The position numbers and the translations under genes were made by a program. This document shows positions 16,842-55,012 of a DNA stretch of 64,000 bases, piece after piece. Numbering within the stretch: position 1 is the stretch's first letter; each line of letters begins with the position of its first letter. The notes under the pieces are model-generated. The model worked only from the letters and a program-made list of their open reading frames with translations, did no database searches and was not told the origin of the DNA. This DNA is from a virus: IMG/VR virus record IMGVR_UViG_3300036790_000425, positions 32,001 to 96,000 of that record, one strand, 5' to 3'.

Positions 16842-19800
16842 CTATTCGAGCGTGTCCTGACCGCCGCGCCGCAGGAACTCCATCGTGGCCGACACCTTCG
16901 CCGCCGGCAGGCCGCACCGCTCACAGGAGTCCGCGGCTGCCACCTTGTCCAGGCCGCCCGTCCCGCCGGTCGGGATCTCCTGCTTGTTCTTCAGGTCCCA
17001 GATCGCGATCTGATTATGGTGCTGCGCCATCCTGGTCGCCCCCTCCAGGCCGTGAACGTTGTGAGAGATGTCCAGGAACACATTCCCCGACTCATGATCA
17101 TGCCACGTCCCGAGATGCGCCCCGGGCTGCGCGAAGTGGCTGGCATGTCCCTGGATATAACTGCGCAGGACGTGATGTCCCTGCGGTCCGAAGAACTCGT
17201 GCGCCGGCAGGAAGTGGCTGCCCTCCTGCTGAGCCACCATGTAGCCGCCCGACGGGGACCGGCCCGAGGTCAGGCTTACAGAATGACCGCCGTTGCGGTG
17301 CGTCCGGTCGATGATCCGGTGCATATCCCGGAAGGAGCTGGTCGGCTCCCTGCTGCGCGCCTCAGTCCTGATCCCGGCGCCCAGCGGGAAGCGCACCACC
17401 TGGTCGCCGCGCTTCACGTGCAGGTGCGTGAACGACACCTGGCGGGCCGGGTGCGACGGCGGGACCGGGTCGCCGTCCTCCAGGTAGGCCAGGGTGACGT
17501 GCGGCCGGTAGTCCTGGTGCTCGCTCGCGCTCAGGTCCTCCAGCTCGCGGCGCAGCTGGCTGATGCCGGGCACGTAGGCCGGGACGAAGACCGGGGTCTT
17601 CCCGTCACTGGCCTCGCTCGGCGGGAAGGTGCCCGTGCCGCGCAGCACGCCGTGCAGCGGCTTCGAGCGGGCCCCTGCCTCGGCCGCCCGCTGCATGGCG
17701 GTGCCGAACGCCTCGTCGCTCAGCCCCTTGCCCAGGTAGACCACCGTGATGTGGGGCTCGTCGTCCACCCCGCCCGGGACCCGCTCGATCAGGCCCTCCG
17801 GGATCGGCAGGTAGATCATCCCGCTGCGGGGCGCTACGTCGTAGCCGGCTACGCCCTCGCGAGGCTCAAGTTTCGTTGACTCTTGCTCTTGAACATCCAA
17901 GGAAACCCCGCCTGCACTTGAATGATCGCGCCGGACTGATGCCGACTTGCGAACGTTGTCCCAGGACTTGGCGAAGGCCGGGTGCAGGTCCAGGTGCTTC
18001 ACCTCTCGCGGCGCGAACCAGCCGGCCCCGGCGATCTCGTGATCGGTCTCGCCCCGGCCGCGCGGGGTGAACAGCTCCGGCGAGTCGTAAGAGACGGTGT
18101 GGAACTTCCAGTCACCGCAGTCGGTGGACACGGTCGTGGACCGGTGGCTGGTGCCGCGCGGCAGCGCGCCCATCTCCTCCCGGAACTCCCGCAGCGCGCC
18201 GTCCTCGGGGCTCTCGTCCTTCCCCCTCGCGCCGGACGGGATTGACCAGGTGTCCGGGTGATCCACGGCCGGGCTGCGCTTCTGAAGCAGGTAGCGGACC
18301 TGGCCGTCCTCGCCCTTGTGGCGCATCAGCAGGCCCGCCGCGCCGTACGCGCCCCAGTGCTCATGACCCTTCGAGCAGGTGACCATCCGGTCGCCGTCCG
18401 AGCCAGAGGCCACGCGCACGGCGGACGGCCTGATCTCGTTATACCCGGTCATGCCACCAGTTCGAGGTGTTCCCGGATATAGGCCACCGTCAGCTCGAAC
18501 AGCACCGGATCGTCCCCGAGATTCCGTACTCGGAAGTTGCATCCCACGCACAGCAGCTTGCGCTTCTTGCCCGTGACGTGGTTGTGGTCCACGCACAGGC
18601 TGATCCGATCCGAAGCCCCTGCCTCGATCGGGCAGATCGCACACTTGCCGCCCTGGGCGGCCAGCATCTCCTCGTACTCCTCGATGGTGATGCCGTAGGT
18701 CCGCTTCAGGTAGACGTTGCGCACGTACCTGGCCCTGCCACCCTTGCGCTCCATCATCCGGGCCTGAGCCGCAGCCTGGTGAATCGTCGCGCACGGCGGG
18801 CAGTAGCTCCCCCTGAACGTGGCGCGGGTGCCCTCCGTCCCGCATGTGGCGCACCACCTCGGGGTCTGGTCGGTCCGGTACCGCTTCATGCGCTCGACCT
18901 GCTGAGTGCTGCGGCACTTCTTGCACACGCCCCGGAAGTAGCCCTTCGGTCCGGCCTTCTTGCCGGGCGGAGTCCAATCGAAATGATCCTGGTCCTGCGG
19001 CTTGGTCTCGTGGCAGCGAGTGCAGGTCTTGGTGTCCATAGCCACTAATGTTACCCGGAGAAACATTGCCGGGGCCGGACGCGCCGGGCTCAGAGAAGAC
19101 GAGTTTCCTGATCTTCTCCAAAATCCTATCAGGACTATAGGAAAGCCATTTCTCGATCAGGTTGCCAGCGTCCTGCCAGCCGTCGCCCTCGTCACTGAAG
19201 GCCCGGCGGCGCTCAGCGTGCAGCCGCTCCCACAGGGCCCTGGCCTGCCGGGTGCGGGCGGGCTCGGCCTGGCGCAGGATGGCCCGGGCCTCGGTGGCCA
19301 CGGCACGGGCCTGGGACAGGATCGCGGGATCGAAATCGGCGGCCGAGTGCGCCGGCAGGTGCGGCGGCCGGACCGCCCACTTCGAGTCGCTGAGATCCCA
19401 GGCCGCGTAGGGCTTGATCCGCCGGATATCCCAGGCACCCGGGTTGACGTAGCCGGTCAGGTCAAAGTGACCGCCGCAGTCCGGGTGCCAGTCCGGGTCG
19501 TTGAAGTGCCTGCGCAGGACATCATTCAGCGCCGCGTCAATCGCGGCATCACCCTTCTTCGGCCAGCCGACTGCACGGTTCCAGTTCCAGGCCTCGTAAT
19601 CCACGCCGATCAGGATGTCCAGGTCCGTGGCCGCGTCGTTGGGACGGCCGCCGGCCCACTCGCTGGCGCTGCCGCCGGCCAGGTAGACCTTCAGGTACTC
19701 TTGCCACTCCGAGCCAGTCAGGCCGCCGTCTACGCGCAGCGCCCGGTCCAGCCGCTCCATGATGTCGTGGCGCACGGCCGGGCGCAGCTCGTGACGGCTG

Positions 19801-19877
19801 TTGAACAGCACCGGGTCAAGCCCGCTGGTCGGCCCGAAAATGCCGCTGGACGGCAGGTACCGGGCTGCCTCGGTCAC
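16842..19877 (-). CDS. multidomain protein: Pol-beta-type nucleotidyltransferase, NUDIX hydrolase, 2H phosphoesterase and a C-terminal phage domain; the NUDIX part may also start independently at 18452
   Basis: YLAGGSAS..DLDIL; G.RGKDESPEDGALREFREEMG NUDIX box; PHITV and PHVTL; GTG 19877 overlaps the upstream stop. Confidence 0.75.
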   Translation of the reverse strand: MTEAARYLPSSGIFGPTSGLDPVLFNSRHELRPAVRHDIMERLDRALRVDGGLTGSEWQEYLKVYLAGGSASEWAGGRPNDAATDLDILIGVDYEAWNWNRAVGWPKKGDAAIDAALNDVLRRHFNDPDWHPDCGGHFDLTGYVNPGAWDIRRIKPYAAWDLSDSKWAVRPPHLPAHSAADFDPAILSQARAVATEARAILRQAEPARTRQARALWERLHAERRRAFSDEGDGWQDAGNLIEKWLSYSPDRILEKIRKLVFSEPGASGPGNVSPGNISGYGHQDLHSLPRDQAAGPGSFRLDSARQEGRTEGLLPGRVQEVPQHSAGRAHEAVPDRPDPEVVRHMRDGGHPRHVQGELLPAVRDDSPGCGSGPDDGAQGWQGQVRAQRLPEADLRHHHRGVRGDAGRPGRQVCDLPDRGRGFGSDQPVRGPQPRHGQEAQAAVRGMQLPSTESRGRSGAVRADGGLYPGTPRTGGMTGYNEIRPSAVRVASGSDGDRMVTCSKGHEHWGAYGAAGLLMRHKGEDGQVRYLLQKRSPAVDHPDTWSIPSGARGKDESPEDGALREFREEMGALPRGTSHRSTTVSTDCGDWKFHTVSYDSPELFTPRGRGETDHEIAGAGWFAPREVKHLDLHPAFAKSWDNVRKSASVRRDHSSAGGVSLDVQEQESTKLEPREGVAGYDVAPRSGMIYLPIPEGLIERVPGGVDDEPHITVVYLGKGLSDEAFGTAMQRAAEAGARSKPLHGVLRGTGTFPPSEASDGKTPVFVPAYVPGISQLRRELEDLSASEHQDYRPHVTLAYLEDGDPVPPSHPARQVSFTHLHVKRGDQVVRFPLGAGIRTEARSREPTSSFRDMHRIIDRTHRNGGHSVSLTSGRSPSGGYMVAQQEGSHFLPAHEFFGPQGHHVLRSYIQGHASHFAQPGAHLGTWHDHESGNVFLDISHNVHGLEGATRMAQHHNQIAIWDLKNKQEIPTGGTGGLDKVAAADSCERCGLPAAKVSATMEFLRRGGQDTLE
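18449..19039 (-). CDS. endonuclease VII-family (homing-type) nuclease nested in an alternate frame
   Basis: YGITIEEYEEML..QGGKCAIC..LCVDHNHVTG..R.LLC..CN; N-terminal CxxC fingers. Confidence 0.88.
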   Translation of the reverse strand: MDTKTCTRCHETKPQDQDHFDWTPPGKKAGPKGYFRGVCKKCRSTQQVERMKRYRTDQTPRWCATCGTEGTRATFRGSYCPPCATIHQAAAQARMMERKGGRARYVRNVYLKRTYGITIEEYEEMLAAQGGKCAICPIEAGASDRISLCVDHNHVTGKKRKLLCVGCNFRVRNLGDDPVLFELTVAYIREHLELVA

Positions 19878-22800
19878 GCCGTCAGCGCCTTGCGCTCGGG
19901 TTCGGTCCACGCACCTTCCGTGCTGCGCAGGATCTCTGCTGCCTCGTCCGCGGTGCCGGCCAGGTGACCGGACATCTGCCGCAGCAGGTCCGGCATGCTC
20001 TCCGCGAGCGGCAGGTGCTCGCACCTGGCCGCCAGCGTCCCCAGGGCGGCCGACACGATCCGCAGGGCGCCGGGTACCTCGTGCAGCATGGACACGACAT
20101 CCTCGGCGCTCTGGGGCTGGTAGGACGCGATCCGCATCGGCATGTCCCGCAGCGCCCGGGCGACCGACACCGGCTGCGCCTTCTCAGGCAGACTCGCCGC
20201 GGCGGCAGCCTCGTGCACCTGGTGGATGAAGCTGGCCGGCAGGGGCTCGCGCAGCGCGTGCACGGTGCCCTCCGTGGCCTCCCGTGGCTCGCTGAGGTAG
20301 CGCGAGACCTGGTCCCGGGGCACGTGGATCTCCACGACGCGCGGGCTCGTCCAGTCCCGCTGCCCGGCGATCAGGGCGGCGCCGTCCCGGCTGGTGGTCA
20401 CCGTGGGCTGGTCCGGGGACTGGGCCGGACGCAGGCCGCCGGACTGGATGCCGGCGGTGTCGTCGTGGTGCGCGCCGTGGTAAAGCACGTAGGGATCAGC
20501 GGGCTGACCCAGTGCGGCCTCATGATCGCCCCAGCCCTCGTCCTCCTCGTCATACCGGGACTCGATGTGCTCCGGGACCGGCATCTCGCGGTGCACGCCG
20601 AACCCGGTCCGGCTGCGCACGTCGCCTGGGTTCACCCGGCGCGAGTTTCCTCCCTCGTCATGAGTCGGGTCCTTCTCGACGTCGTCGGCATGCGGGGTGA
20701 CCTCGAAAACCCTGGGCCGGCCGCCGTGCGCCTCCGCCGCGCGCTCGGCGTAGTCCCAGGCGCTGCCCGGGTCCGCCGTGGCGAAAGCGTGCGTGCCGTC
20801 GTGATCCTGCGGGAAGTTCCGCCGCCCGCTGCCCTGCGGGGTGATCTGATCCGGATCGCCGCTGTCGTTCGTGCCGTGGTAGTAGGGTCCCCGGGCCGGC
20901 TCACCGCGCTTGCCCCGGTCCAGGGCATCCATGTCCCGGCGGAAATTGCGATCATGCTCGCCCTCGCTGGCGTCGAACATGCCGTAGCAGTGCTGGCACA
21001 CAGCCGGGCTCCGGCCGCCGCCCTCGCCGTGGTCACCCGGGCCAGGCGGCCGGAACCGGCGGCTGCCGCAGTCCGGGCAGGCGGCATCCTCGTGCGGGAC
21101 GGCCGGCTCCAGCGCGGCGGTGCGCTTCTGCTTCTCCAGGGCGCGCAGGCCCTTCCGGTAGGGCTCGTAGACGGAATCCGTCTCGTCGTTCACCCAGCTG
21201 TAGCTCTCCGGGCCGTTCCGGTCGTCGCGCATGTAGCGGGCGGAGCCGTGCCAGGGCTCGTGCACGGCCAGCATCTGCCGGGGGTGCACGTCACCGCGCA
21301 TGATCACGTGGTGGTGGCCCTCGCCCCACTCCCTCAGCTTGCCCTGGTCGTAGCTGCCGTCCTTATTGCGGGCATGCCAGGGTGACTCGGCGTTGCCGGA
21401 GATCTCATCCGGGTGGGCGTGGTACTCCACGACAGCCGCATGCCCTGAGTGATCATCCAGGATGTCGTCCGGGCGCTTAGTGGAGGCCCACACGCCGGCC
21501 GACGGGTCATCCAGGTTGTGGTCCCCGGCATCGCCCCGGGCGCGGCTGCGCTGGAGTCCGTGCTGCCGGATCGAGTCCACGTTGTCCAGCGGGGTGTAGT
21601 GCCAGAGCCGGACGCGCCCGGCCGGGATCTCGGCGGTGCCGGGATCGGCCGGCAGCTCATCTCGGCTGTGCAAGGCGCCCTCCTTCGGGATGCCGACGTC
21701 GGTATAGTTCACCGTGCCGTGCTGACCTGGCCGGTGGCTGACCGGGACGTGGCGGTCCACCGGATGCCACGTCCAGCCCGGCGGGTTGTGCTCGGGGTGC
21801 AGGGGGTGCACCGTGCCCTCCTTGCCGGGCTCGCCCACCCAGGCCCCCTCCACGTGCACCGAGGAGCCGGGGTGCAGCCGGACCTCCGCCTCCGACGGCA
21901 GCGACTCGTGCCTGCCGCGCCACATCGGGTGCGAGCGGGAGATGGCCTGGGACTCCGGGTGCTCCAGCCGGGACTGCCACACCACCGGCCGGGTGCTCGG
22001 GCCGCCCCGTTCGGGGCCGGTGATAACGCCCTCCGGCTTCGCGCTCCAGTGCATGCCGAGCGAGCGGGTGCCGGAGATGTCCTCGCCGGCCGGGCGGCGC
22101 TCGCCGCGCCACAGCCGCAGGCCCGGCTCGGGCCTGCTGGCCACGTCCAGCATCTTCCTGCTGTAATCCCGGTCATCGGCAGCCGCCAGGCCCTCGCGCT
22201 GGGAGTCGATCATCGGCGGCAGGTGGCTCAGGTCCGGCGGCCGGTGCGGGCTCAGGCCGCTGCCGGGGAAGTCCCGGGACAGGCCGCGCCCGTGCCGGTC
22301 GTTGGCTACCTGGATCTTGGCATCGGTGTAGTGACGGCGGGCCAGCGCCGCGGCGTCCTCATGCCCGGCACCGTCCAGGGCCAGGGCGTAGTGCCAGGTG
22401 AAGCCCCGGCCGTGGCGCCGCTCGTCCGGGTCCTTGTCGCTCGGCCGCGGGTGCCTGTCCCAGGACTCCCGGGGCCGGGCCTCCTCCAGCGCCTGCCGCT
22501 TATCGGTCATGACGTGCGCGGCATGATGAGCCAGCTCATGGATGCTGCCGTGCTCCGGGGCCACGGCGGAGTCGATGTCCTCGCGCGGCATGAAGAAGCT
22601 GGCCTGACCGAGCATCTTCCGCAGCGTGCCGGTGCGGTCCTCCGGAGCCTGGCCCAGGTGCGGGTGCTCCTGGCTGACTTTCGCCTCGACGGCGGCGTGC
22701 ACTGCGCGGTTGGGCTCGGCAGCGACGTGATCAGCCACAGCGGTGCGGCGGACCCGGGGGAGCGGGATCTGGCTGCGCGTGGCCGCGTACCCCTCCGCTG

Positions 22801-24628
22801 AGGCGTGCCACTTGTCGTCCGGGTGATAGTCGATCTCCAGGGTGTGACCGCGCACGCCCGTCTCGCCCTGGTGGCGCCAGCGCTCATCCGGGGCAGCCGA
22901 GGCCCGGGTGTAGCCGCCGCGTGACTGGAGGTACCCGTTGTGCTGGGCGTCATCCCATTCACCCGGATCAGCAACCCGGTAGAGCTTGCTGACCGGCTTG
23001 CCGCTCAGAGTCAGGCCGCCCTCCGGATGCTGCTCGATCCGGCCGCCGTATAGCTCCCCGGGCGAGGGGAGGATGCTCCCGGGCCGGGGCAGCGCAGGCC
23101 CTGAGAGCGCCCGGGAGAGACGCTCCTCGGACTCCCTCCTCTGGCTGTCGTCAGCGGCTGCTGCGACGTGCTCACCGCTCTCGGCCTCGAAGTGCGCCAC
23201 GACGGCCGCCTGATGCTCGCCGCTGACGAAGTGCTCCGGCTTCAGGTCCGAGGCGCGGACGGTGTAGAACTTCTCCGTGCCGCCGCCGAACGAGTCGTTC
23301 TCGGTGGCCAGGTGCCGGGGCACCCGGACATGCACGGCCTCCGGACCGTAGCCGCCGCCGTAGAAGCCGTGCGGGACGTCCGAGAAGAACACCGGGCCCT
23401 GCTTGCCGTGCTGGTCGATCATCCGGCGCTGGCTGCGGATCGCGGCGGCGTTCTCCGGCGTGGTGTGGTGGTACAGGTCCACCTGATCAGCGGCACCCTC
23501 GTGGCGCGTCGGCTCATCATCGTCGTCGCGGTGCATCTCCTGGCACTCCGGGCAGTTGCGGGGCTGGTCGCTCTCGCGCGAGGTGTCGGCCACCACGCCC
23601 TCCATCGAGGACTTGCCCGTCAGCCGGGCCCGGGCATACCGGTGGTGGCCGTCAAGCAGGTAGGTCCTGCCCTCATGGCGGACGAACCGGGCCGGCTCCT
23701 CGTCGTAGGGGCGCCCCGTCTCGTGCTCGTAGCGGTCCACGAGCTGCTTATCGTGCATCGTGTCGGCGTGCACGAAGGGCTGGTGAACGTGGATCTGCTG
23801 CCTCAGCGAGACGCGCTCAGGAGCCATGTGACGCCAGTGGTCCTCCTGCTGGTCCAGGTCGTCCGGCCAGCCGTGGTGCTCCAGCCGGGGGATCTCGTGC
23901 GGCTCGACGTGCGGGCCCCAGGAGTGCGGGAAGTGCACCACGCCGTTCTCGTCAGCGCGGCGGTTCACCCAGTCGCTGATCCGGTCCTCGCGGCGCTCCC
24001 GGGCGGCAGGGGAGGCAGTCTCGTAGCCAGCCCCGAAATGGTCCATGAGACCGCCGGTCACCTCGCGGATCACCCGGAGCGGGTGCTCGCTGTAGTGGCT
24101 CCGGGGATTCCACCGGTCCGGCTTGTGCTCGCCGGTCGGCTCGACCTCGAACACCCGGGCGTGCTCCGGCGGCCTGCCCTGCTCGCGCGCCGCCTGGCTG
24201 GCAACGTCCCGGGCCCAGCCCGGGCTCTCAGTGAAGAAGGTCTCCTCGCTCGGGCCCTCCCAGCCGCGGTCCAGGGCGCGGGGCATCCCCGTGGTCACCA
24301 TGTCGTCAGGCTGGAACGGGTGCGTGGTGCCGTGATAGAAACGCGGCCCGGTACCGGCCTCGAAATGCTCCAGGACGCCGGAGCGCCAGTGCTTGCGGCG
24401 GGGCTGGGGCTGGCCGGGGCAGTGCGGGTCGCGGGCGCCCTTATCGGTGGTGCCGGTGCCGCCGCAGCGCCCGCAGGACGAGCCGTCGCCGTGCTCGCCC
24501 GTGCCGCCGCAGCAGGAGCAGGACTCCTGGCCCCGGCCGGGGCGGGCGGCGGCGCTCATGCCCCTTACATTAGCAAGGTTTCCTGTAACAGGCGAGAGCG
24601 GAGCGAAGTGCGCCAGCAGCGGGTCCAT
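19874..24628 (-). CDS. 1584-aa polyvalent protein: about 7 ADP-ribosyltransferase-fold domains, ParB-like domain, HExxH zincin, Zn ribbons, C-terminal helical domain
   Basis: FYHGT..RVFEVEPTG, LYHHT, LYRV, LWRGE..WS..EAEV, LWHYT, YYHGT..RVFEV, LYHGA; LLDGHHR; HELAH; RBS AGGAGG. Confidence 0.8.
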   Translation of the reverse strand: MDPLLAHFAPLSPVTGNLANVRGMSAAARPGRGQESCSCCGGTGEHGDGSSCGRCGGTGTTDKGARDPHCPGQPQPRRKHWRSGVLEHFEAGTGPRFYHGTTHPFQPDDMVTTGMPRALDRGWEGPSEETFFTESPGWARDVASQAAREQGRPPEHARVFEVEPTGEHKPDRWNPRSHYSEHPLRVIREVTGGLMDHFGAGYETASPAARERREDRISDWVNRRADENGVVHFPHSWGPHVEPHEIPRLEHHGWPDDLDQQEDHWRHMAPERVSLRQQIHVHQPFVHADTMHDKQLVDRYEHETGRPYDEEPARFVRHEGRTYLLDGHHRYARARLTGKSSMEGVVADTSRESDQPRNCPECQEMHRDDDDEPTRHEGAADQVDLYHHTTPENAAAIRSQRRMIDQHGKQGPVFFSDVPHGFYGGGYGPEAVHVRVPRHLATENDSFGGGTEKFYTVRASDLKPEHFVSGEHQAAVVAHFEAESGEHVAAAADDSQRRESEERLSRALSGPALPRPGSILPSPGELYGGRIEQHPEGGLTLSGKPVSKLYRVADPGEWDDAQHNGYLQSRGGYTRASAAPDERWRHQGETGVRGHTLEIDYHPDDKWHASAEGYAATRSQIPLPRVRRTAVADHVAAEPNRAVHAAVEAKVSQEHPHLGQAPEDRTGTLRKMLGQASFFMPREDIDSAVAPEHGSIHELAHHAAHVMTDKRQALEEARPRESWDRHPRPSDKDPDERRHGRGFTWHYALALDGAGHEDAAALARRHYTDAKIQVANDRHGRGLSRDFPGSGLSPHRPPDLSHLPPMIDSQREGLAAADDRDYSRKMLDVASRPEPGLRLWRGERRPAGEDISGTRSLGMHWSAKPEGVITGPERGGPSTRPVVWQSRLEHPESQAISRSHPMWRGRHESLPSEAEVRLHPGSSVHVEGAWVGEPGKEGTVHPLHPEHNPPGWTWHPVDRHVPVSHRPGQHGTVNYTDVGIPKEGALHSRDELPADPGTAEIPAGRVRLWHYTPLDNVDSIRQHGLQRSRARGDAGDHNLDDPSAGVWASTKRPDDILDDHSGHAAVVEYHAHPDEISGNAESPWHARNKDGSYDQGKLREWGEGHHHVIMRGDVHPRQMLAVHEPWHGSARYMRDDRNGPESYSWVNDETDSVYEPYRKGLRALEKQKRTAALEPAVPHEDAACPDCGSRRFRPPGPGDHGEGGGRSPAVCQHCYGMFDASEGEHDRNFRRDMDALDRGKRGEPARGPYYHGTNDSGDPDQITPQGSGRRNFPQDHDGTHAFATADPGSAWDYAERAAEAHGGRPRVFEVTPHADDVEKDPTHDEGGNSRRVNPGDVRSRTGFGVHREMPVPEHIESRYDEEDEGWGDHEAALGQPADPYVLYHGAHHDDTAGIQSGGLRPAQSPDQPTVTTSRDGAALIAGQRDWTSPRVVEIHVPRDQVSRYLSEPREATEGTVHALREPLPASFIHQVHEAAAAASLPEKAQPVSVARALRDMPMRIASYQPQSAEDVVSMLHEVPGALRIVSAALGTLAARCEHLPLAESMPDLLRQMSGHLAGTADEAAEILRSTEGAWTEPERKALTA

Positions 24629-47931: not shown

Positions 47932-48870
47932 TCAGGCCGCGGCGTCCTCCGCGATCCCGGCACTGGCCGGGGCGATGCCGGCGGCCTGCGCGGGCATCCC
48001 GTCCACGATCTGGCGGGCGGCCTTCTGGATGCGCGAGCCGGACTCCCTGATCATCTTGCGGGCCTGCCCGGGGTCGCCGCGCATCCAGCTCAGCACGTAG
48101 CCGAAGCTGTAGTCCGAGGTGTCGGCGCCGAGCGCGGCAGCCGCGATGTAGGCAACCGACTCGGCCTCCAGCTCCTTCAGCCCGGCGGGAGCCTCGCTGC
48201 TCTCGTGCAGCAGGACGTGCCCGGCCTCGTGCAGCAGGGTCTTCAGCTGGCCCATCGTGGACCGGCCATCGGTGGCGATCCGGACCCGGCGCAGGCTCCA
48301 GGTCGTGTCGCCGTTCTTGGAACCGGACTCGAAGCGGTCCACGAACTCCACGTCATAGCCGGCCGAGTTAATGAAGGCGACCGCGCGGGCGATCATGCCC
48401 TCGGGCGCCTCGCCCGTCAGCTTGCGGACCGGCCCGGGCAGCGGCTCGCCCTCGGTCTGGCTGATGTCGAATACCGGCACCGGGACGAAGAACGGGATGC
48501 GCCGGGTCTCGCCGGTCTCCTCGTCCTCGACCTTGCGGGAGGACGGGGCCCAGATCCAGATCGCGCGCTGGCGCTGGCCGGTCTCGTCCGGGCCCTTGAC
48601 GTGGCGGCCCAGGAGCAGCCAGCCCGACTTCGGCTTGCCGGTGACCTTGTCGGTCGTGCCGAAGCTGGTGACCCGGGTGGCGTGCGGGCACTGGGCCATG
48701 ATCAGCATCGAGTTGCCGAAGCTGTAGGTGTGGAAGCGGGCCTGCACGTCCAGGTAGGCCTGCCAGGTCGCGGAGGTAGCCAGCGCGTCGATGCCGGCGG
48801 CCAGCTTCTCGGTGATCTCCGCGCGGTGGTCGGTCTTGGCGCGGGCGGGCTTGCGGGTCGTCTTGGTCAT
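47932..48870 (-). CDS. ArdC-like antirestriction protein (ssDNA-binding N-domain plus zincin), probably leaderless
   Basis: W..YL....FH.YSF.N.MLI..Q.P.AT.V; W...GR.V; F..V.VFDISQTEG; LLHEAGH; ELEAESVAY; YSFGY...W. Confidence 0.85.
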   Translation of the reverse strand: MTKTTRKPARAKTDHRAEITEKLAAGIDALATSATWQAYLDVQARFHTYSFGNSMLIMAQCPHATRVTSFGTTDKVTGKPKSGWLLLGRHVKGPDETGQRQRAIWIWAPSSRKVEDEETGETRRIPFFVPVPVFDISQTEGEPLPGPVRKLTGEAPEGMIARAVAFINSAGYDVEFVDRFESGSKNGDTTWSLRRVRIATDGRSTMGQLKTLLHEAGHVLLHESSEAPAGLKELEAESVAYIAAAALGADTSDYSFGYVLSWMRGDPGQARKMIRESGSRIQKAARQIVDGMPAQAAGIAPASAGIAEDAAA

Positions 48871-48958: not shown

Positions 48959-50866
48959 TTACTGATCGCTGACCGTGTCCCACAGATCCTCGCTGGGCCG
49001 CGGGTTCTCGATCCGTTCGATCTCCTCGGCATGCTCGGAGTTGAACATGGCCCTGATCTCCTCGGCCTGCTGCACGGCCGAGGTGAACAGCCCGGTGAAC
49101 TGCTCCATCGCCTGCTTGGTCCCCGGCCCGATCGGCAGGCCGTCGGCGCTGTCCTTCAGCCCGCTGAAGGCCGCGGCGACCTCAGTCATTGACTCCGGCA
49201 TGCCGTCGAAGATGTCCCGCATCTCGCGGGTCGTGGTCGGCTGGTGGGTGGCAACGGCCGAGCTGAACTGCTCGGCCGCCGAGTGGATGACTCCTGCCAT
49301 GCCTGCTCCTCCTCCTGAGAATGCTGCGGCCGTGCCCGGCCGGCGGCGGCCGGCGAGCGGGATGCTGCCCGGGACCGTGCCCGCGGGCTCCGGCATGCGG
49401 CCGTCCTCCGGGTCCGCCCGGGTAGTCACGGGGCGCTCGGGCGGCCTGGTCCAGTACGTAGGCGGCGCCTGCCTCGCGCGGCTCCGCTTCCTCCAGAATA
49501 GCAAGAAACCTGCCAGGCCCGCGCCTGTCGCGGCGGCGGTGCCCGTCCGGCCGCCCCAGGCGCGCATCCGGGCCCTCAGCGGGGTCCGGCCGCTCCACCG
49601 GCCGGCGATGCGCCGGGCCAGCGGCGGGACGCCGCCCGGGTAGCGCTTCGCCAGCCTCGCCACGCGCCGCGCCCGGAGCCTGCTCGTCTGGGCCCGGGAC
49701 TTCCGCCGGGTCCAGGCATAGCTGTCCCGGGTCTTGATGCACGTGATGGTGCGCCACTTCCGGGCATGCCGCCACCTGCCCCCGGCTGCTGCCCTCCGGG
49801 CGTTATTAGCGGTCTTGCGGCCCTGGGCCGCCGCTACCCGGGCGTCCTTGCGCCGCTGGCGCGAGGCGTGCCTGTAGTCCCTGCGGCCCTGCCGCCCGCC
49901 GCCCTTTCCTGCCTTCCGGTTGTGCCGTGCCAGGCGGGCCGCCTGAGCGCGCTGGCGGCCGGCGGCGGTGGGGTGGCGCAGGAACCGGCCCGCGGCACGG
50001 GTGCGCCGGAGCCTCGGCGCGCCGCCGAGCGCGCCTGGCGCGGCGGCGGCAGCGGCACGGCGCGCGGTCCGGGCGGCGCGGCCCTGCGCCTTCTGGCTGC
50101 GCCGGTACTGGCGCCGCTGGCCCGGGTGGCGCATGCCCGGCCGCCCGCCGGGGAAGCCTGGCGCAGAGGTGCCGCGCCGGCCGAAGACACTGCGCCTGCC
50201 GGTCTTCGCGCCAGCGCCCGTGCCACTGCGCCGGCGGCCGGCCTGGCCCGTGGCGCGCCGTCCCGTGCCGGCTGTCCCGGCACGGCTGCGCCGGCCTCCG
50301 CCGAGCGGGTGGCGCATGGTGCGCTTGCCGCGGGCGCCGGCTCCGCCGGGGACGGAGTGACGGCCGCGCCGGGCGCCTGCCCCGGCGGCGGCGCTGCCCT
50401 TGCGGCCGGAGAACGGGTTGAGCCGGGCCAGGCCCTTCCTGCCCGCGGCGGCGGTCCCGGCGCCCTTCCTGCCGCCGGCCGCGGCGCTCAGGCGGCCCTT
50501 ACGGCCGCCCAGTCCCGCTCCGCCCCGGCCGCTGCCGAGACGGCCGCGCATGGCGCCGCCCAGCCGGCCGCGCTGCCCGCGGGTGATGGTCCGGGTCGTC
50601 CGGGTACGCCGCATCCCCGGCTTGCGCCGGTTGGCGTTGAAGTGCTGCCGGATATGCGGCAGGTAGCGGAGCACCAGGAAGCCGGCGAACAGGGCGGCAG
50701 CCGCGACGATGATGATGATCGCCGTGCCGCCGCCTGCCTTGTGAACCAGGGCGGCGACCCCGGCGACGATGAGCAGCAGGACGGTCCCGCCGCGGCGCCA
50801 CATGTGCGACCGCGGGCGGGATTCCGCCTGCTGGGCGGGGACTGTTTCCTCAGCCAACTGGGACAC
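48959..50866 (-). CDS. two-TM, Arg/Gly-rich protein with C-terminal ~113-aa helical domain (own RBS/ATG at 49300); plasmid transfer-region-like
   Basis: N-terminal TM pair; very basic low-complexity middle; C-terminal H.E.I.RIENPR..E..WD; AGGAGGAGGAG before 49300. Confidence 0.6.
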   Translation of the reverse strand: MSQLAEETVPAQQAESRPRSHMWRRGGTVLLLIVAGVAALVHKAGGGTAIIIIVAAAALFAGFLVLRYLPHIRQHFNANRRKPGMRRTRTTRTITRGQRGRLGGAMRGRLGSGRGGAGLGGRKGRLSAAAGGRKGAGTAAAGRKGLARLNPFSGRKGSAAAGAGARRGRHSVPGGAGARGKRTMRHPLGGGRRSRAGTAGTGRRATGQAGRRRSGTGAGAKTGRRSVFGRRGTSAPGFPGGRPGMRHPGQRRQYRRSQKAQGRAARTARRAAAAAAPGALGGAPRLRRTRAAGRFLRHPTAAGRQRAQAARLARHNRKAGKGGGRQGRRDYRHASRQRRKDARVAAAQGRKTANNARRAAAGGRWRHARKWRTITCIKTRDSYAWTRRKSRAQTSRLRARRVARLAKRYPGGVPPLARRIAGRWSGRTPLRARMRAWGGRTGTAAATGAGLAGFLLFWRKRSRARQAPPTYWTRPPERPVTTRADPEDGRMPEPAGTVPGSIPLAGRRRPGTAAAFSGGGAGMAGVIHSAAEQFSSAVATHQPTTTREMRDIFDGMPESMTEVAAAFSGLKDSADGLPIGPGTKQAMEQFTGLFTSAVQQAEEIRAMFNSEHAEEIERIENPRPSEDLWDTVSDQ

Positions 50867-51989
50867 CTCCGGGGATGAAGGGCTGAGCAGGGGCGATCAG
50901 GTCGCCCTGCCCGTTCGCGTGCCGGGCCGGCGGCAGCGGCCGGAGGCGCTGGGCTCGCTCGGCTCGCTCGGCGTTCAGCAGCCTCGTGCCCCAGCGCCGC
51001 TGATCGGACTCCTCGGGCGGGGCGATCATGCGGGCGACCTGGCGGTAGGTCGTGGCCGCCAGGTCAGTGTCGGACAGGCCGGCCAGCTGATCGGCCACCT
51101 CGCGCCGGCGCTCGGCGCTGACCCCGGCGGGGACCCGGGCATCGGCGCTCAGCTCAGCCGCCGCGCTGTGCACGGCGGGCACCAGGCTCAGGCGGCCTGG
51201 CGCGGCGTCCTCGTGCGCCATCGCTGGCACGTCCTCGTGCGCCATCGCTGGCGCGGCTGGCGCGGCTGGCGCGGCTGGCGCGCTCTCGATCGCTGGCACG
51301 TCCTCGCGCGCCACCACCTCCGGCACGGATGGCGCGGGCAGTGATGGCGCGGGGATGGCGCGGCGCGGCGCGTCCTCCTGGCGCGGGGGCTTGATCACGG
51401 CCGGGCCCTCGGTCATGTAGTCGCTGATGGCACGCTGCGGGCTGGTCTCGCCGTACCAGGTGGCGCGGCGCATCACCCGGAACGAGCCGACCGGGTGCCA
51501 GGCCACGCGGGTGGCTCCGAGCCGGACAGCGTGCTTCTCGATCAGGCCCTGGGCCATCAGCTTGTCGCGGCTGACCCGGCGCGAGTGCACCGACCACAGC
51601 CACGGCGAGATCGAGGACATCAGGCCGAAGATCAGCGCGGCCACGGTCGGCCGCCAGTGACTCGCGAAGTGGCTGTAGTTCATGGCGCCGACGATCAGGG
51701 CCAGCGCGTAGGACGACAGCCGCAGCCGGGCGGTCGAGTCGTTCTTCAGCTGCGCCTCGTGCGCCTGGTAGGCCAGCACGACGGCAATCAGCTCCAGGAT
51801 GACCGCCACCAGGATGACCGACCAGCGCGGCACCGGCAGGTGATCCCGCAGGTAGGCGTACTGACCGATGAAGGCCGCGATGTTCACGCCCACGATCGGG
51901 ACAGCGGTCAGGACAGCGCTCACACCATGCCGGAAGCGGTCACTCCTGATCACTTCCAGGACCTCGGCAGACCCGTCACGCATCGTCAT
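50850..51989 (-). CDS. DUF2637/Spd-like 4-TM membrane protein
   Basis: four TM helices, MNYSH, Pro/Ala linker, C-terminal helical part; RBS GAGGAGGAG. Confidence 0.65.
   Translation of the reverse strand: MTMRDGSAEVLEVIRSDRFRHGVSAVLTAVPIVGVNIAAFIGQYAYLRDHLPVPRWSVILVAVILELIAVVLAYQAHEAQLKNDSTARLRLSSYALALIVGAMNYSHFASHWRPTVAALIFGLMSSISPWLWSVHSRRVSRDKLMAQGLIEKHAVRLGATRVAWHPVGSFRVMRRATWYGETSPQRAISDYMTEGPAVIKPPRQEDAPRRAIPAPSLPAPSVPEVVAREDVPAIESAPAAPAAPAAPAMAHEDVPAMAHEDAAPGRLSLVPAVHSAAAELSADARVPAGVSAERRREVADQLAGLSDTDLAATTYRQVARMIAPPEESDQRRWGTRLLNAERAERAQRLRPLPPARHANGQGDLIAPAQPFIPGGVPVG
51206..51313. repeat. intragenic tandem repeats (24-bp x2 plus a variant, 9-bp x4)
   Basis: CGTCCTCGTGCGCCATCGCTGGC twice; GCTGGCGCG four times. 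Confidence 0.7.
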
Positions 51990-52319: not shown

Positions 52320-54281
52320 GTGAGTGCCCCGACGACCAAGACCTGGGAGCACGTCGCGGAGTGGACAGCGCTGCTCAGCGCTGCCGTGCTCACCGCCGTG
52401 GCTTACCTGCCCGGCATGGGCGCGCCCGCGTGGTGCGTCCCGGTGCTGTCCGCGGTGCTCGGCCTGATCGCGGCGGGCGTGGCCGCTGCCGTGGCCGGCG
52501 GGAGGTTCGCCGCCTGGTGCGCCGCCTACGGCGCATGGTGCGCCGCCTGGAGCTACTGGGCCGGCACGCGCGGCCTGTGGCACCCTGTTGTCGTGATCGC
52601 CTGGATCCTGGGGGCCGTCGCCTTCGTCGCGGCCGGCGCGCTCCTCCTGGCACACCGCCGGCCGGCGCAGCTGGCCATCGAGGCCGCGCCGGACCCCGAG
52701 GAGGCCAGCCGCCTGGAGGTCCTGGCGCAGTGGGACCACCTGTTCGCCTCGGTGGACTGCGAGGGCGTCCGGACGGTCGAGGTCATCGACGACAAGGCCA
52801 CGCCGGGCCGGGTGATCCGGGCCGAGCTGCCGCGCAAGGGGCACCTGACCATCCGCAGCCTGGAGACCCAGGCGCACCGGATGGAGGTCGCGCTGCGGCT
52901 GCGGGAGAACAGCATCACCTTCGCCACCCTGGCGAACGCCGCGGACATCGAGCTGCGGCTGCGGGAGCGGGACCTCATGACCAAGGCCGTCCCGCTGACC
53001 CCGGCGCACTACGCCACCACCATCAACAAGCCGTTCGCCGTCGGCGTGGGCGAGGACGGCAAGATCAAGTCGCTGACCCTGCGCCAGGTCCACATGATGC
53101 TGGTCGGCACGACCGGCGCGGGCAAGTCGAACCTGATCAACGTCCTGACCGGGCAGATGGGCCGGATGGTGGACACCGTCATCTGGTGCATCGACATGAA
53201 GGGCGGCCGGGTCGCCCGGCCGTGGCTCCTGCCGTGGATGAACAACGAGACCGATCAGCCGGTCTTCGACTGGGTGGCTACCAGCCGGAAGGAGGCCGCG
53301 CTGATGATGGACTGCTTCGTGATGGCCATCACCAGCCGGATGAACTCCGGCCGGGGCGGGTCGAAGATCACCCCGAAGGCCAATATCCCGCAGATCATCC
53401 TGCTGGTGGACGAGGCGGCCGACCTGATCGGCCAGGACAAGGGCCCGACCCTGGCCGAGGCCGAGCGGCTCGGCGTGCTGACCAACCGGCAGTTCGCCAA
53501 GCGCTTCGGAGAGATCACCCAGAAGGGGCGGTCCGAGGCTGCCTCCGCAGTGATCGCCACCCAGCGGGGCACCAACAGCATGTCCGGTGACGGCGACATC
53601 AAGGGTCAGTGCAAGACCCGGATCCTGCTGGGCACGGTCAACGAGAATGAGGCCCGCTACGTGCTGAACGACGACCCGCAGGCCTGGCGGCTGGCCACGA
53701 TGGCCTCCGCCATCCCGGGTGCCGGGGTCATCGGCGTCGGCCGGGACACCTCGCTGCTGGTCAAGTTCTTCCTGCTGGACCACCCGGAGGTGCCGGGCAC
53801 CGAAACCGGCGAGACGCTGTGTGATGACGGCTGCGTGCCGGAGTGCGCGGTCCGGATGACCGCGATCGAGACCGGCCGGGTCCGCCCGGCGCTGGACCAG
53901 GAGACCGCCGCCAGCATGGGCGAGACCTACGCCGACCGGTGGGCCCGGGCCCGGGACGCTGGCGTCATCACCCGGGTGCCTGCCCGGCGCCAGGTGGCCG
54001 CGGTCAGCACCGCCGGGTTCGAGCAGATCATGTCCGACTCGGGGATGACCGACCCGGACCAGGACGTGGACCCGCGGCGGCTGCGGATGCGCGAGCTGCT
54101 GGCCTCCCGGGGGCCGGCAGGCGGCACACCCAACTTCCTGTGGACCAAGATGGCGGAGGAGGGCATCACCGTGGCCCGGGAGACCCTGTCCCGGTGGCTG
54201 CGCGCCGACGCCGACCGCGGCCTGTGCCACTCGGCTGATGAGCATGGCCGCTGGCGGATCGGCCAGAAGCCGGCCGCCTAG
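52320..54281 (+). CDS. traB: TraB-like FtsK/SpoIIIE DNA translocase
   Basis: four N-terminal TM helices, GTTGAGKS, IDMKGG, LLVDEAA, GRS, ATQR, C-terminal wHTH-like V.RETLSRWL; RBS GGAGGAG. Confidence 0.8.
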   Translation: MSAPTTKTWEHVAEWTALLSAAVLTAVAYLPGMGAPAWCVPVLSAVLGLIAAGVAAAVAGGRFAAWCAAYGAWCAAWSYWAGTRGLWHPVVVIAWILGAVAFVAAGALLLAHRRPAQLAIEAAPDPEEASRLEVLAQWDHLFASVDCEGVRTVEVIDDKATPGRVIRAELPRKGHLTIRSLETQAHRMEVALRLRENSITFATLANAADIELRLRERDLMTKAVPLTPAHYATTINKPFAVGVGEDGKIKSLTLRQVHMMLVGTTGAGKSNLINVLTGQMGRMVDTVIWCIDMKGGRVARPWLLPWMNNETDQPVFDWVATSRKEAALMMDCFVMAITSRMNSGRGGSKITPKANIPQIILLVDEAADLIGQDKGPTLAEAERLGVLTNRQFAKRFGEITQKGRSEAASAVIATQRGTNSMSGDGDIKGQCKTRILLGTVNENEARYVLNDDPQAWRLATMASAIPGAGVIGVGRDTSLLVKFFLLDHPEVPGTETGETLCDDGCVPECAVRMTAIETGRVRPALDQETAASMGETYADRWARARDAGVITRVPARRQVAAVSTAGFEQIMSDSGMTDPDQDVDPRRLRMRELLASRGPAGGTPNFLWTKMAEEGITVARETLSRWLRADADRGLCHSADEHGRWRIGQKPAA

Positions 54282-55012
54282 CCTGCCGCGGCGGGGGCCT
54301 CGGCCGGGGCGATCTCGGGCGGGGCCTCCACTGCTGCTACCGAGGGAGTCGCGGGCAGCGGCGGCTGGCCCGCGGCCGAGAGCGTCTGCTCCACGTCCGC
54401 GCCCAGCGTGCCGCGGTCGGCGTCGGCGCTCAGGATCTTCCCGGTGGTGTCGTGGTACTGCTGCATCCGGCGCCGGGCCTCCCCGAGCCGGCCCTCCATG
54501 TCCTGGAGCCGCTGCGCGGCGCCCTCGCTGACCGCCGCGGAGTGCGCGGCGGCCTGGTCGGTCATCCGCTTGGCCTCCGCCCGCGCGCCCTCCAGGGCGA
54601 TCTCGGCCTGCTCCCGTGCCCCGGCCGCGACCTTGTCGGCCTCCTCGCGGGCGTCGGCCAGGAGCTGGCGGGCGGCGTCCTCCGCGTCTGATCTCAGCTG
54701 CGCCGCGGACTGGTCGGCCTCGGCCTTCTGGCCGGCCAGCTCCTCGGCCGCCATCCTCATCAGGTCGGCCACCAGCCTGGTCGCCTGCGGAGACTCGGCC
54801 GCCTTCGCCAGGGTCTGCTCGGCGTCGTGGCCGAAGTGAGCCACCTGCCGCTCGGCGTCGTGCAGGCGTGTCAGGATCCGGGCGATCCAGGAGTCCACCT
54901 GCTTCGGGTGATAGCCGCCGGCCCCCTGGACCTGGTCGAACCGGGGATCCAGGTCGGGGTCGGCAGCCGGGCCGAGGTCGGTCACCGGGTACTGCTGGGT
55001 GTCGCTGGTCAT
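54278..55012 (-). CDS. DivIVA-domain coiled-coil protein
   Basis: RF......GY...QVD.WI..I followed by A..EA....A heptad repeats. Confidence 0.75.
   Translation of the reverse strand: MTSDTQQYPVTDLGPAADPDLDPRFDQVQGAGGYHPKQVDSWIARILTRLHDAERQVAHFGHDAEQTLAKAAESPQATRLVADLMRMAAEELAGQKAEADQSAAQLRSDAEDAARQLLADAREEADKVAAGAREQAEIALEGARAEAKRMTDQAAAHSAAVSEGAAQRLQDMEGRLGEARRRMQQYHDTTGKILSADADRGTLGADVEQTLSAAGQPPLPATPSVAAVEAPPEIAPAEAPAAAG

Follow-up and report, generated by a model that had tools for sequence, protein, structure and literature searches.

The question raised by this locus is why a long phage protein built from effector domains should end in the same kind of domain as a membrane protein of a TraB translocase module. 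The stretch of DNA analyzed (the window, 64,000 nucleotides) corresponds to bases 32001-96000 of the IMG/VR record IMGVR_UViG_3300036790_000425, a single contig of 162,435 bp with a G+C content of ~71%. In this window, the polyvalent protein P0001 ends in a segment that we call d1, and the membrane protein P0002, which belongs to the module of a TraB/FtsK-like translocase, ends in a segment that we call d2 (Table 1). An original prediction, made from the sequence without database searches, had taken both C-terminal domains for paralogues with a WXG100-like shape that link the effector protein to the transfer module. Our profile comparisons show that d1 is a diverged member of an undescribed family of helical domains, tightly linked to genes for TraB/FtsK-type translocases.

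The two peptides on which the prediction was based are located where it had placed them, at the C-terminus of P0001 (the last ~100 residues) and at that of P0002, and a recount of the ungapped 64-residue alignment returned the same number of identities (14/64). When the C-terminal pieces of P0001 and P0002 were compared by BLASTP, a gapless alignment with 15/67 identities was obtained (31.6 bits, pairwise E=1e-6). A phmmer search of the 1787 six-frame open reading frames (ORFs) of the replicon showed d1 and d2 to be reciprocal best non-self matches, with E-values of 0.01 and 0.036. With d2 as query, 14 actinomycete plasmids were matched by tblastn; d1 alone as query gave no match in the plasmid collection or in the word-indexed protein set. 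A profile search among actinomycete plasmid genes had been proposed as a check, and its outcome was favorable: a hidden Markov model (HMM) of nine plasmid homologues, with P0002 left out, recognized P0001 with E=1.3e-8, the next ORF having E=1.5. A further HMM of 166 domains, from which all window sequences were left out, gave 44.8 bits for d1 (E=1.6e-12) and 109.6 bits for d2, with the next match in the replicon at E=0.47.

Against the sequences of the Protein Data Bank (PDB), the family profile matched designed coiled coils only, with up to 37.7 bits, and because of these matches shuffle tests of d1 were carried out. Isolated d1 scored 51.4 bits on the family profile, compared with 9.8 bits for reversed d1, a maximum of 11.6 bits in 3000 composition shuffles and a maximum of 19.8 bits in 3000 shuffles that preserved the hydrophobic pattern. 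The match between d1 and d2 therefore exceeds that of generic amphipathic helices, the outcome that had been named as fatal to the prediction, and the homology of d1 and d2 stands by all these comparisons. That two amphipathic helical segments rich in Ala, Leu and Glu look alike by chance could be argued from the designed coiled coils, which reveal some composition-driven scoring of the profile, but in view of the shuffle and reversal scores, the distance to the next match in the replicon and the gapless alignment of the loop prolines and tail motif of d1, we regard it as excluded, with a negligible probability. Thus, what the prediction had said on the homology of the C-terminal domains was borne out, and strict paralogy, in the sense of a duplication inside this genome, was not, as the placement of d1 in the tree does not resolve; since d1 lies on a long branch, an origin from the phage's own d2 is not decided by the tree.

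With respect to its structure, d1 covers positions 8-92 of the profile, followed by a gap of ~18 residues and then by the tail R-x-x-E-x-x-W. It retains P67, R112, E115 and W118, as well as the three proline loop motifs in register with the family, and its identity to any other family member is 20-30%. As judged from these alignments, d1 is by descent a truncated, atypical member of the family. The G+C values at the three codon positions of the d1 stretch (0.74/0.52/0.92) indicate that its frame is coding. The idea of a tail hidden by a frameshift was also considered and ruled out: the missing tail motif was not found in any of the three reading frames, and P0187, an independent metagenome copy, has the last 185 residues and the stop codon identical to those of P0001.

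The family is unnamed and is defined here by our own alignment; a typical domain has ~120 amino acids (aa) and is helical. The exhaustive phmmer search with d2 yielded at least 195 cluster representatives at E<=1e-3, and among the matches listed 147 proteins were confirmed by the family HMM. The giant type IX secretion system proteins P0034 and P0062 of the phmmer list, unconfirmed by this HMM, were discarded as spurious. In the 147 listed proteins, the domain stands alone in 51, is C-terminal in 81, internal in 12 and N-terminal in 3. The stand-alone members are about 106-160 aa long and none of them (0/51) has transmembrane segments; transmembrane segments and basic linkers are found upstream of the domain in 52 of the 96 longer members, and a C-terminal domain typically comes after transmembrane segments and a long, basic linker of low complexity. 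Tandem pairs of the domain are present in 24 of the 147 listed members (among proteins P0007-P0111), and since first and second copies fall in separate clades of the tree, the tandem duplication is old, with both halves retained. The domain was not recognized by Pfam, NCBIfam or PHROGs.

The AlphaFold2 model of d2, built from an alignment of 112 rows, has a predicted local distance difference test (pLDDT) value of 90.6. It shows a bundle of three helices (12-29, 35-65 and 70-100), with a short fourth helix (102-109) and the conserved tail. The turns of the domain carry the motifs Y/H-Q-P, M/V-P and L-P. The near-invariant positions are P67, in the loop between helices 2 and 3, H101, R107, P111, R112, E115 and W118, and d2 has all seven (7/7). 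The tail consensus of the family is H..D..R..PR..E..WD, with the version H..E..E.I.NPR..E..WD in d2. Foldseek searches of the PDB with the single-domain and tandem models gave nothing at E<=1e-3; in the wide VIA-align search the best Z was 9.5, for unrelated generic hairpins and below the noise level for helical models, and searches of the ESM Atlas by shape and features returned only unnamed actinomycete and phage clusters. The AlphaFold2 model of a tandem pair (236 residues) had a pLDDT of 87.7 and a predicted template modelling score (pTM) of 0.86, the linker between the copies being of low confidence; from the pTM alone, we infer that the tandem copies pack into one unit.

The WXG100-like shape attributed to both domains was not supported, as the model of d2 is a three-helix bundle plus tail and not a two-helix hairpin. 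There is no W-x-G motif at the turns of the domain, and no match to PF06013 was obtained for d1 (E<=1), for 112 family members (E<=0.1) or for the whole replicon (E<=0.01). The Foldseek comparisons with EsxB, EsxA and WXG100 structures were non-significant (E 2-3.6, TM-score 0.26-0.46); a superposition from the atlas reached a TM-score of 0.49 to a WXG100-type structure, a loose fit through the long hairpin of helices 2 and 3. EspC (PF10824) was also tried as a candidate, and weak matches appeared in 4 of the 112 members (best E 1e-3), neither window copy being among them; these matches were treated as noise because the PF10824 profile also matches Escherichia coli and archaeal controls (9 of 14 control genomes). 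WXG100 proteins such as EsxAB are substrates of type VII secretion that are recognized by the FtsK-like ATPase EccC. The family described here shares with them the small size, the helical nature, the neighborhood of a gene for an FtsK-family ATPase and a conserved C-terminal tail, but it differs in having three helices instead of two and in lacking both W-x-G and PF06013.

The link to the transfer module was upheld at the level of the family. In 9/9 plasmid loci, the domain gene is located directly upstream of a ~700-aa homologue of the window TraB, often after a DUF2637 gene and near a GntR regulator. This trio recurs in the Streptomyces phage Galactica, with a membrane protein (gp96), a membrane protein with the domain (gp98) and an FtsK-like translocase (gp99). 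A tail-motif scan of IMG/VR yielded seven records with a true domain, and in all of them (7/7) a TraB-like gene comes next on the same strand, directly after the domain gene or within a few hundred bases. Altogether, in plasmid, provirus and phage loci the domain gene lies upstream of a TraB/FtsK-like gene in 17/17 cases, and no exception was seen. In a viral contig collection, no TraB patterns were found. A separate observation concerns two of the IMG/VR records (G003:C1:17491-17823 and G009:C1:57049-57390), in which the domain match just before the TraB gene contains one in-frame TGA; overlap with the gene that follows, readthrough or an assembly error could account for it.

In the window itself, the arrangement is slightly different. 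P0002, the second gene of its operon, has two N-terminal transmembrane segments, a linker of ~370 residues (25% Arg, 18% Gly, 18% Ala) and then the helical d2; the database calls of this protein are shorter (614 aa, start ATG at ~50803). Its gene belongs to the TraB module, yet the DUF2637 gene intervenes and TraB is oriented divergently. As d1 lies ~28 kb from this module, inside the polyvalent gene, neither copy stands directly upstream of the translocase. The inverted TraB beside the DUF2637-P0002 pair is found in the window phage and in its metagenomic relative L011, and it is the sole difference from the 17 other loci. The genes on either side of the module encode an ArdC-N/M78-like anti-restriction protein (47932-48870, minus strand) and a protein with a DivIVA domain (54278-55012, minus strand), and this flanking order, including ArdC-N, recurs in L011. 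[quoted passage not shown]

By its domain content, P0001 fits the definition of polyvalent proteins given by Iyer et al. (2017, PMC5512222), in which a single polypeptide encoded by a phage or a conjugative element has at least two unrelated effector domains, although three regions of P0001 are below threshold. Only the Arr-type (Arr-ms) ADP-ribosyltransferase (ART) at residues 97-191 exceeds the Pfam cut-off (27.6 bits, cut-off 25); a VapB-like region at 251-346 falls just below it, and a second Arr-like match near 1249-1323 and a zinc ribbon are weak and sub-threshold. The GTG start of the downstream NUDIX/LigT gene overlaps the TGA stop of P0001 as GTGA (window 19874-19877).

The history of this junction can be read from P0069, a protein of 2425 aa on a 163-kb metagenome contig, in a syntenic position after DNA polymerase III (Pol III), RecA and a 706-aa gene. 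In P0069, GNAT and an Arr-type ART are combined with a complete domain copy (926-1044) and with LigT; the residues that come directly after the domain (1054-1317) share 61% identity with the N-terminal region of the window's downstream gene. Therefore, the junction between the domain and this module is ancestral, and it is at exactly this point that the window phage has split the polyprotein. A complete related phage, G001 (L019, IMGVR_UViG_3300010396_000001; 160,709 bp with direct terminal repeats), carries two polyvalent ORFs (1889 and 2075 aa) made of shuffled P0001 modules, 73% identical to the middle of P0001, and neither TraB nor the domain was found in it. In the three phage genomes checked, the domain is present with TraB and absent without TraB.

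Two other features of these polyvalent genes should be mentioned. P0001 contains four occurrences of the motif [LVIMA][LVIMAE]-x-H-F-[AEGD]-[APT], near the borders of the modules; they begin at residues 4, 85, 194 and 476 (span: residues 4-483, window 23179-24619). The motif has no other occurrence in the 242,070 residues of the six-frame ORFs of the replicon and is absent from P0069; a role as a linker or as a site of processing is conceivable. In the downstream gene, the N-terminal module (window 18939-19721, residues ~53-313 of ORF 16842-20024) had no match in Pfam and shows, by eye, a G-S ... D-L-D-I-L pattern like that of minimal nucleotidyltransferases.

Taking into account the gene linkage, the tandem-pair model, the common absence of the domain and TraB in G001 and the published multiprotein nature of the TraB complex, we tentatively propose, as quite possible, that the domain serves for pairing or docking within the TraB-Spd complex and in P0001 tethers the effector array to P0002 or TraB. 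As a module for protein-protein pairing in the TraB translocation complex, it would allow P0001 to bind, through d1, either P0002 or some other component of this complex. In that way, the anti-host enzymes might concentrate at the place where DNA is moved by the phage TraB pump from one hyphal compartment or cell to another. In the window phage, the copy has lost part of its tail, and the GTGA overlap splits the once-fused polyprotein directly after d1.

Several points weigh against this docking role. The binding is a prediction, and the pairing of separate domains is read from the pTM value only. The loci that count as adjacent to TraB were retrieved by d2 homology or by the tail motif and are phylogenetically non-independent, and the IMG/VR proviruses may be integrative conjugative elements. 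The fusion of the domain to polyvalent proteins is known from one phage lineage and one syntenic position, so that it may be a single event. Moreover, three of the seven near-invariant residues (H101, R107 and P111) are missing from d1, and its branch is by far the longest of the family (2.3, compared with a median of 0.46); from these lost residues and this branch, d1 may be under relaxed or altered constraint. In addition, FtsK/TraB pumps are known to move double-stranded DNA and not proteins.

The domain could instead be a generic oligomerization or spacer module that only dimerizes or stabilizes P0001, with no functional tie to TraB. The fold searches, which yielded common helical hairpins and bundles only, the self-pairing suggested by the tandem model and the free shuffling of modules among polyvalent proteins (PMC5512222) would all agree with this. 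However, the family occurs elsewhere only beside TraB-like genes (the 17/17 loci), and the polyvalent proteins of G001, a phage with no TraB, do not contain the domain, so we consider this explanation unlikely, though one to be kept in mind.

We judge it no more probable that d1 has no current role and is the decaying remnant of a single capture, by recombination, into an ancestral polyvalent gene. The deletion of ~18 residues, with H101, R107 and P111 among them, and the long terminal branch would be expected from decay, as would the fact that the fused P0069 keeps a complete copy whereas the window gene is split at the end of d1. Nevertheless, the frame of d1 is intact, with a third-position G+C of 0.92, its three helices and loop prolines are all preserved (51 bits), the R-x-x-E-x-x-W tail has been retained in register, and the GTGA overlap resembles an organized, coupled junction rather than damage.

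A stronger version of the docking role would make the domain a dedicated adaptor of TraB/FtsK-type translocases in actinomycete plasmids and phages, which the phage fused to a polyvalent anti-defense protein for its recruitment to the pump and its delivery, with or ahead of the DNA, into adjacent hyphal compartments or cells. We hold this to be improbable. The carrier for FtsK-type export named in the original prediction would fit the data, but this version is the least supported reading. If it were true, TraB systems would gain a role in protein delivery, in parallel with the C-terminal signals that are read by the coupling proteins of type IV secretion systems and by EccC in type VII secretion.

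Finally, the original prediction had also suggested a decoy that disturbs the transfer of resident plasmids. The tail-deficient d1 would compete with the domain proteins that resident elements (plasmids or integrative elements) or the phage itself encode, and would block or hijack the transfer driven by TraB. The loss of part of the conserved tail with the helical core kept, in a protein that is an anti-host effector array, would suit such a function, but the motif is complete in the orthologous copy of P0069 and the identity of d1 to any other member is only 20-30%, which makes a decoy very unlikely.

Concerning the element that carries these genes, the PHROGs search identified, just outside the window, structural proteins of the virion together with a tail sheath protein, a baseplate wedge protein and a minor tail protein, and the replicon is thus a 162-kb tailed phage and not a plasmid. 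The window includes a replication block (Pol III alpha, RecA, PrimPol-D5 and a 5'-3' exonuclease), and further encodes a GH25 lysin, helicases and the TraB module. Related elements of ~160 kb are present in soil metagenomes and in IMG/VR.

Table 1. Location of the two domain copies and of the genes discussed in the text (window coordinates).
Feature	Coordinates	Strand	Remarks
Downstream polyvalent gene	16842..19877	-	1011 aa; NUDIX and LigT/2'-5' RNA ligase domains
P0001	19874..24628	-	Polyvalent protein, 1584 aa
d1	19877..20176	-	Diverged domain copy; P0001 residues 1485-1584, by profile matches
P0002	48959..50866	-	Membrane protein, 635 aa, ending in d2
d2	48962..49333	-	Full domain copy; last ~124 residues of P0002
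DUF2637 gene	50850..51989	-	Membrane protein; starts the operon, with P0002 as its last gene
TraB gene	52320..54281	+	TraB/FtsK-like P-loop translocase; divergent from the DUF2637-P0002 operon

The comparison with known systems helps to place the domain. As in the polyvalent proteins described previously (PMC5512222), several unrelated effector modules are joined in one phage-encoded polypeptide and shuffled among relatives; P0001 differs from them by a module that is homologous to a TraB-linked accessory protein, and the text of that work mentions FtsK three times and TraB not at all. In the plasmid pSVH1, the order of the operon is spdB3-spd79-spdB2-orf108-traB, and TraB-Spd forms a multiprotein complex in which numerous interactions occur, both between pairs of proteins and of proteins with themselves (Thoma et al. 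2015, PMC4447253). The operon logic, that is, membrane Spd proteins, a small ORF and traB, is shared with the loci described here, with the difference that pSVH1 Spd/TraB is plasmid-borne and the element of the window is a tailed phage. Orf108, of ~108 aa, interacted with itself and bound peptidoglycan, and a transfer phenotype was absent (PMC4447253); we liken it to the stand-alone members of the family by its position upstream of traB and its size only. A further parallel is given by the TraC1 primase and ArdC, proteins which are transferred by type IV secretion in conjugation (PMC5512222). The shared idea is that an anti-host protein of the element enters the new cell together with the DNA, but those systems use a coupling protein and transfer single-stranded DNA, while here the machine would be a TraB pump for double-stranded DNA.

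Polyvalent proteins and TraB cassettes were each already known; the domain family, its linkage to traB and the polyvalent copy are not described in the literature and libraries that we reached. Streptomyces-type conjugation is usually described as requiring a single protein, TraB, plus the poorly understood Spd proteins. As a conserved, unannotated domain whose gene is found directly upstream of traB in plasmids and integrated elements as well as in tailed phages, the domain is a new candidate core accessory of the TraB machine. Its presence in a polyvalent effector offers a testable handle both on the role of FtsK/TraB cassettes in actinophages and on the placement or delivery of polyvalent effectors. 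If the proposed pairing is true, the domain would provide a tag that steers proteins to the TraB complex.

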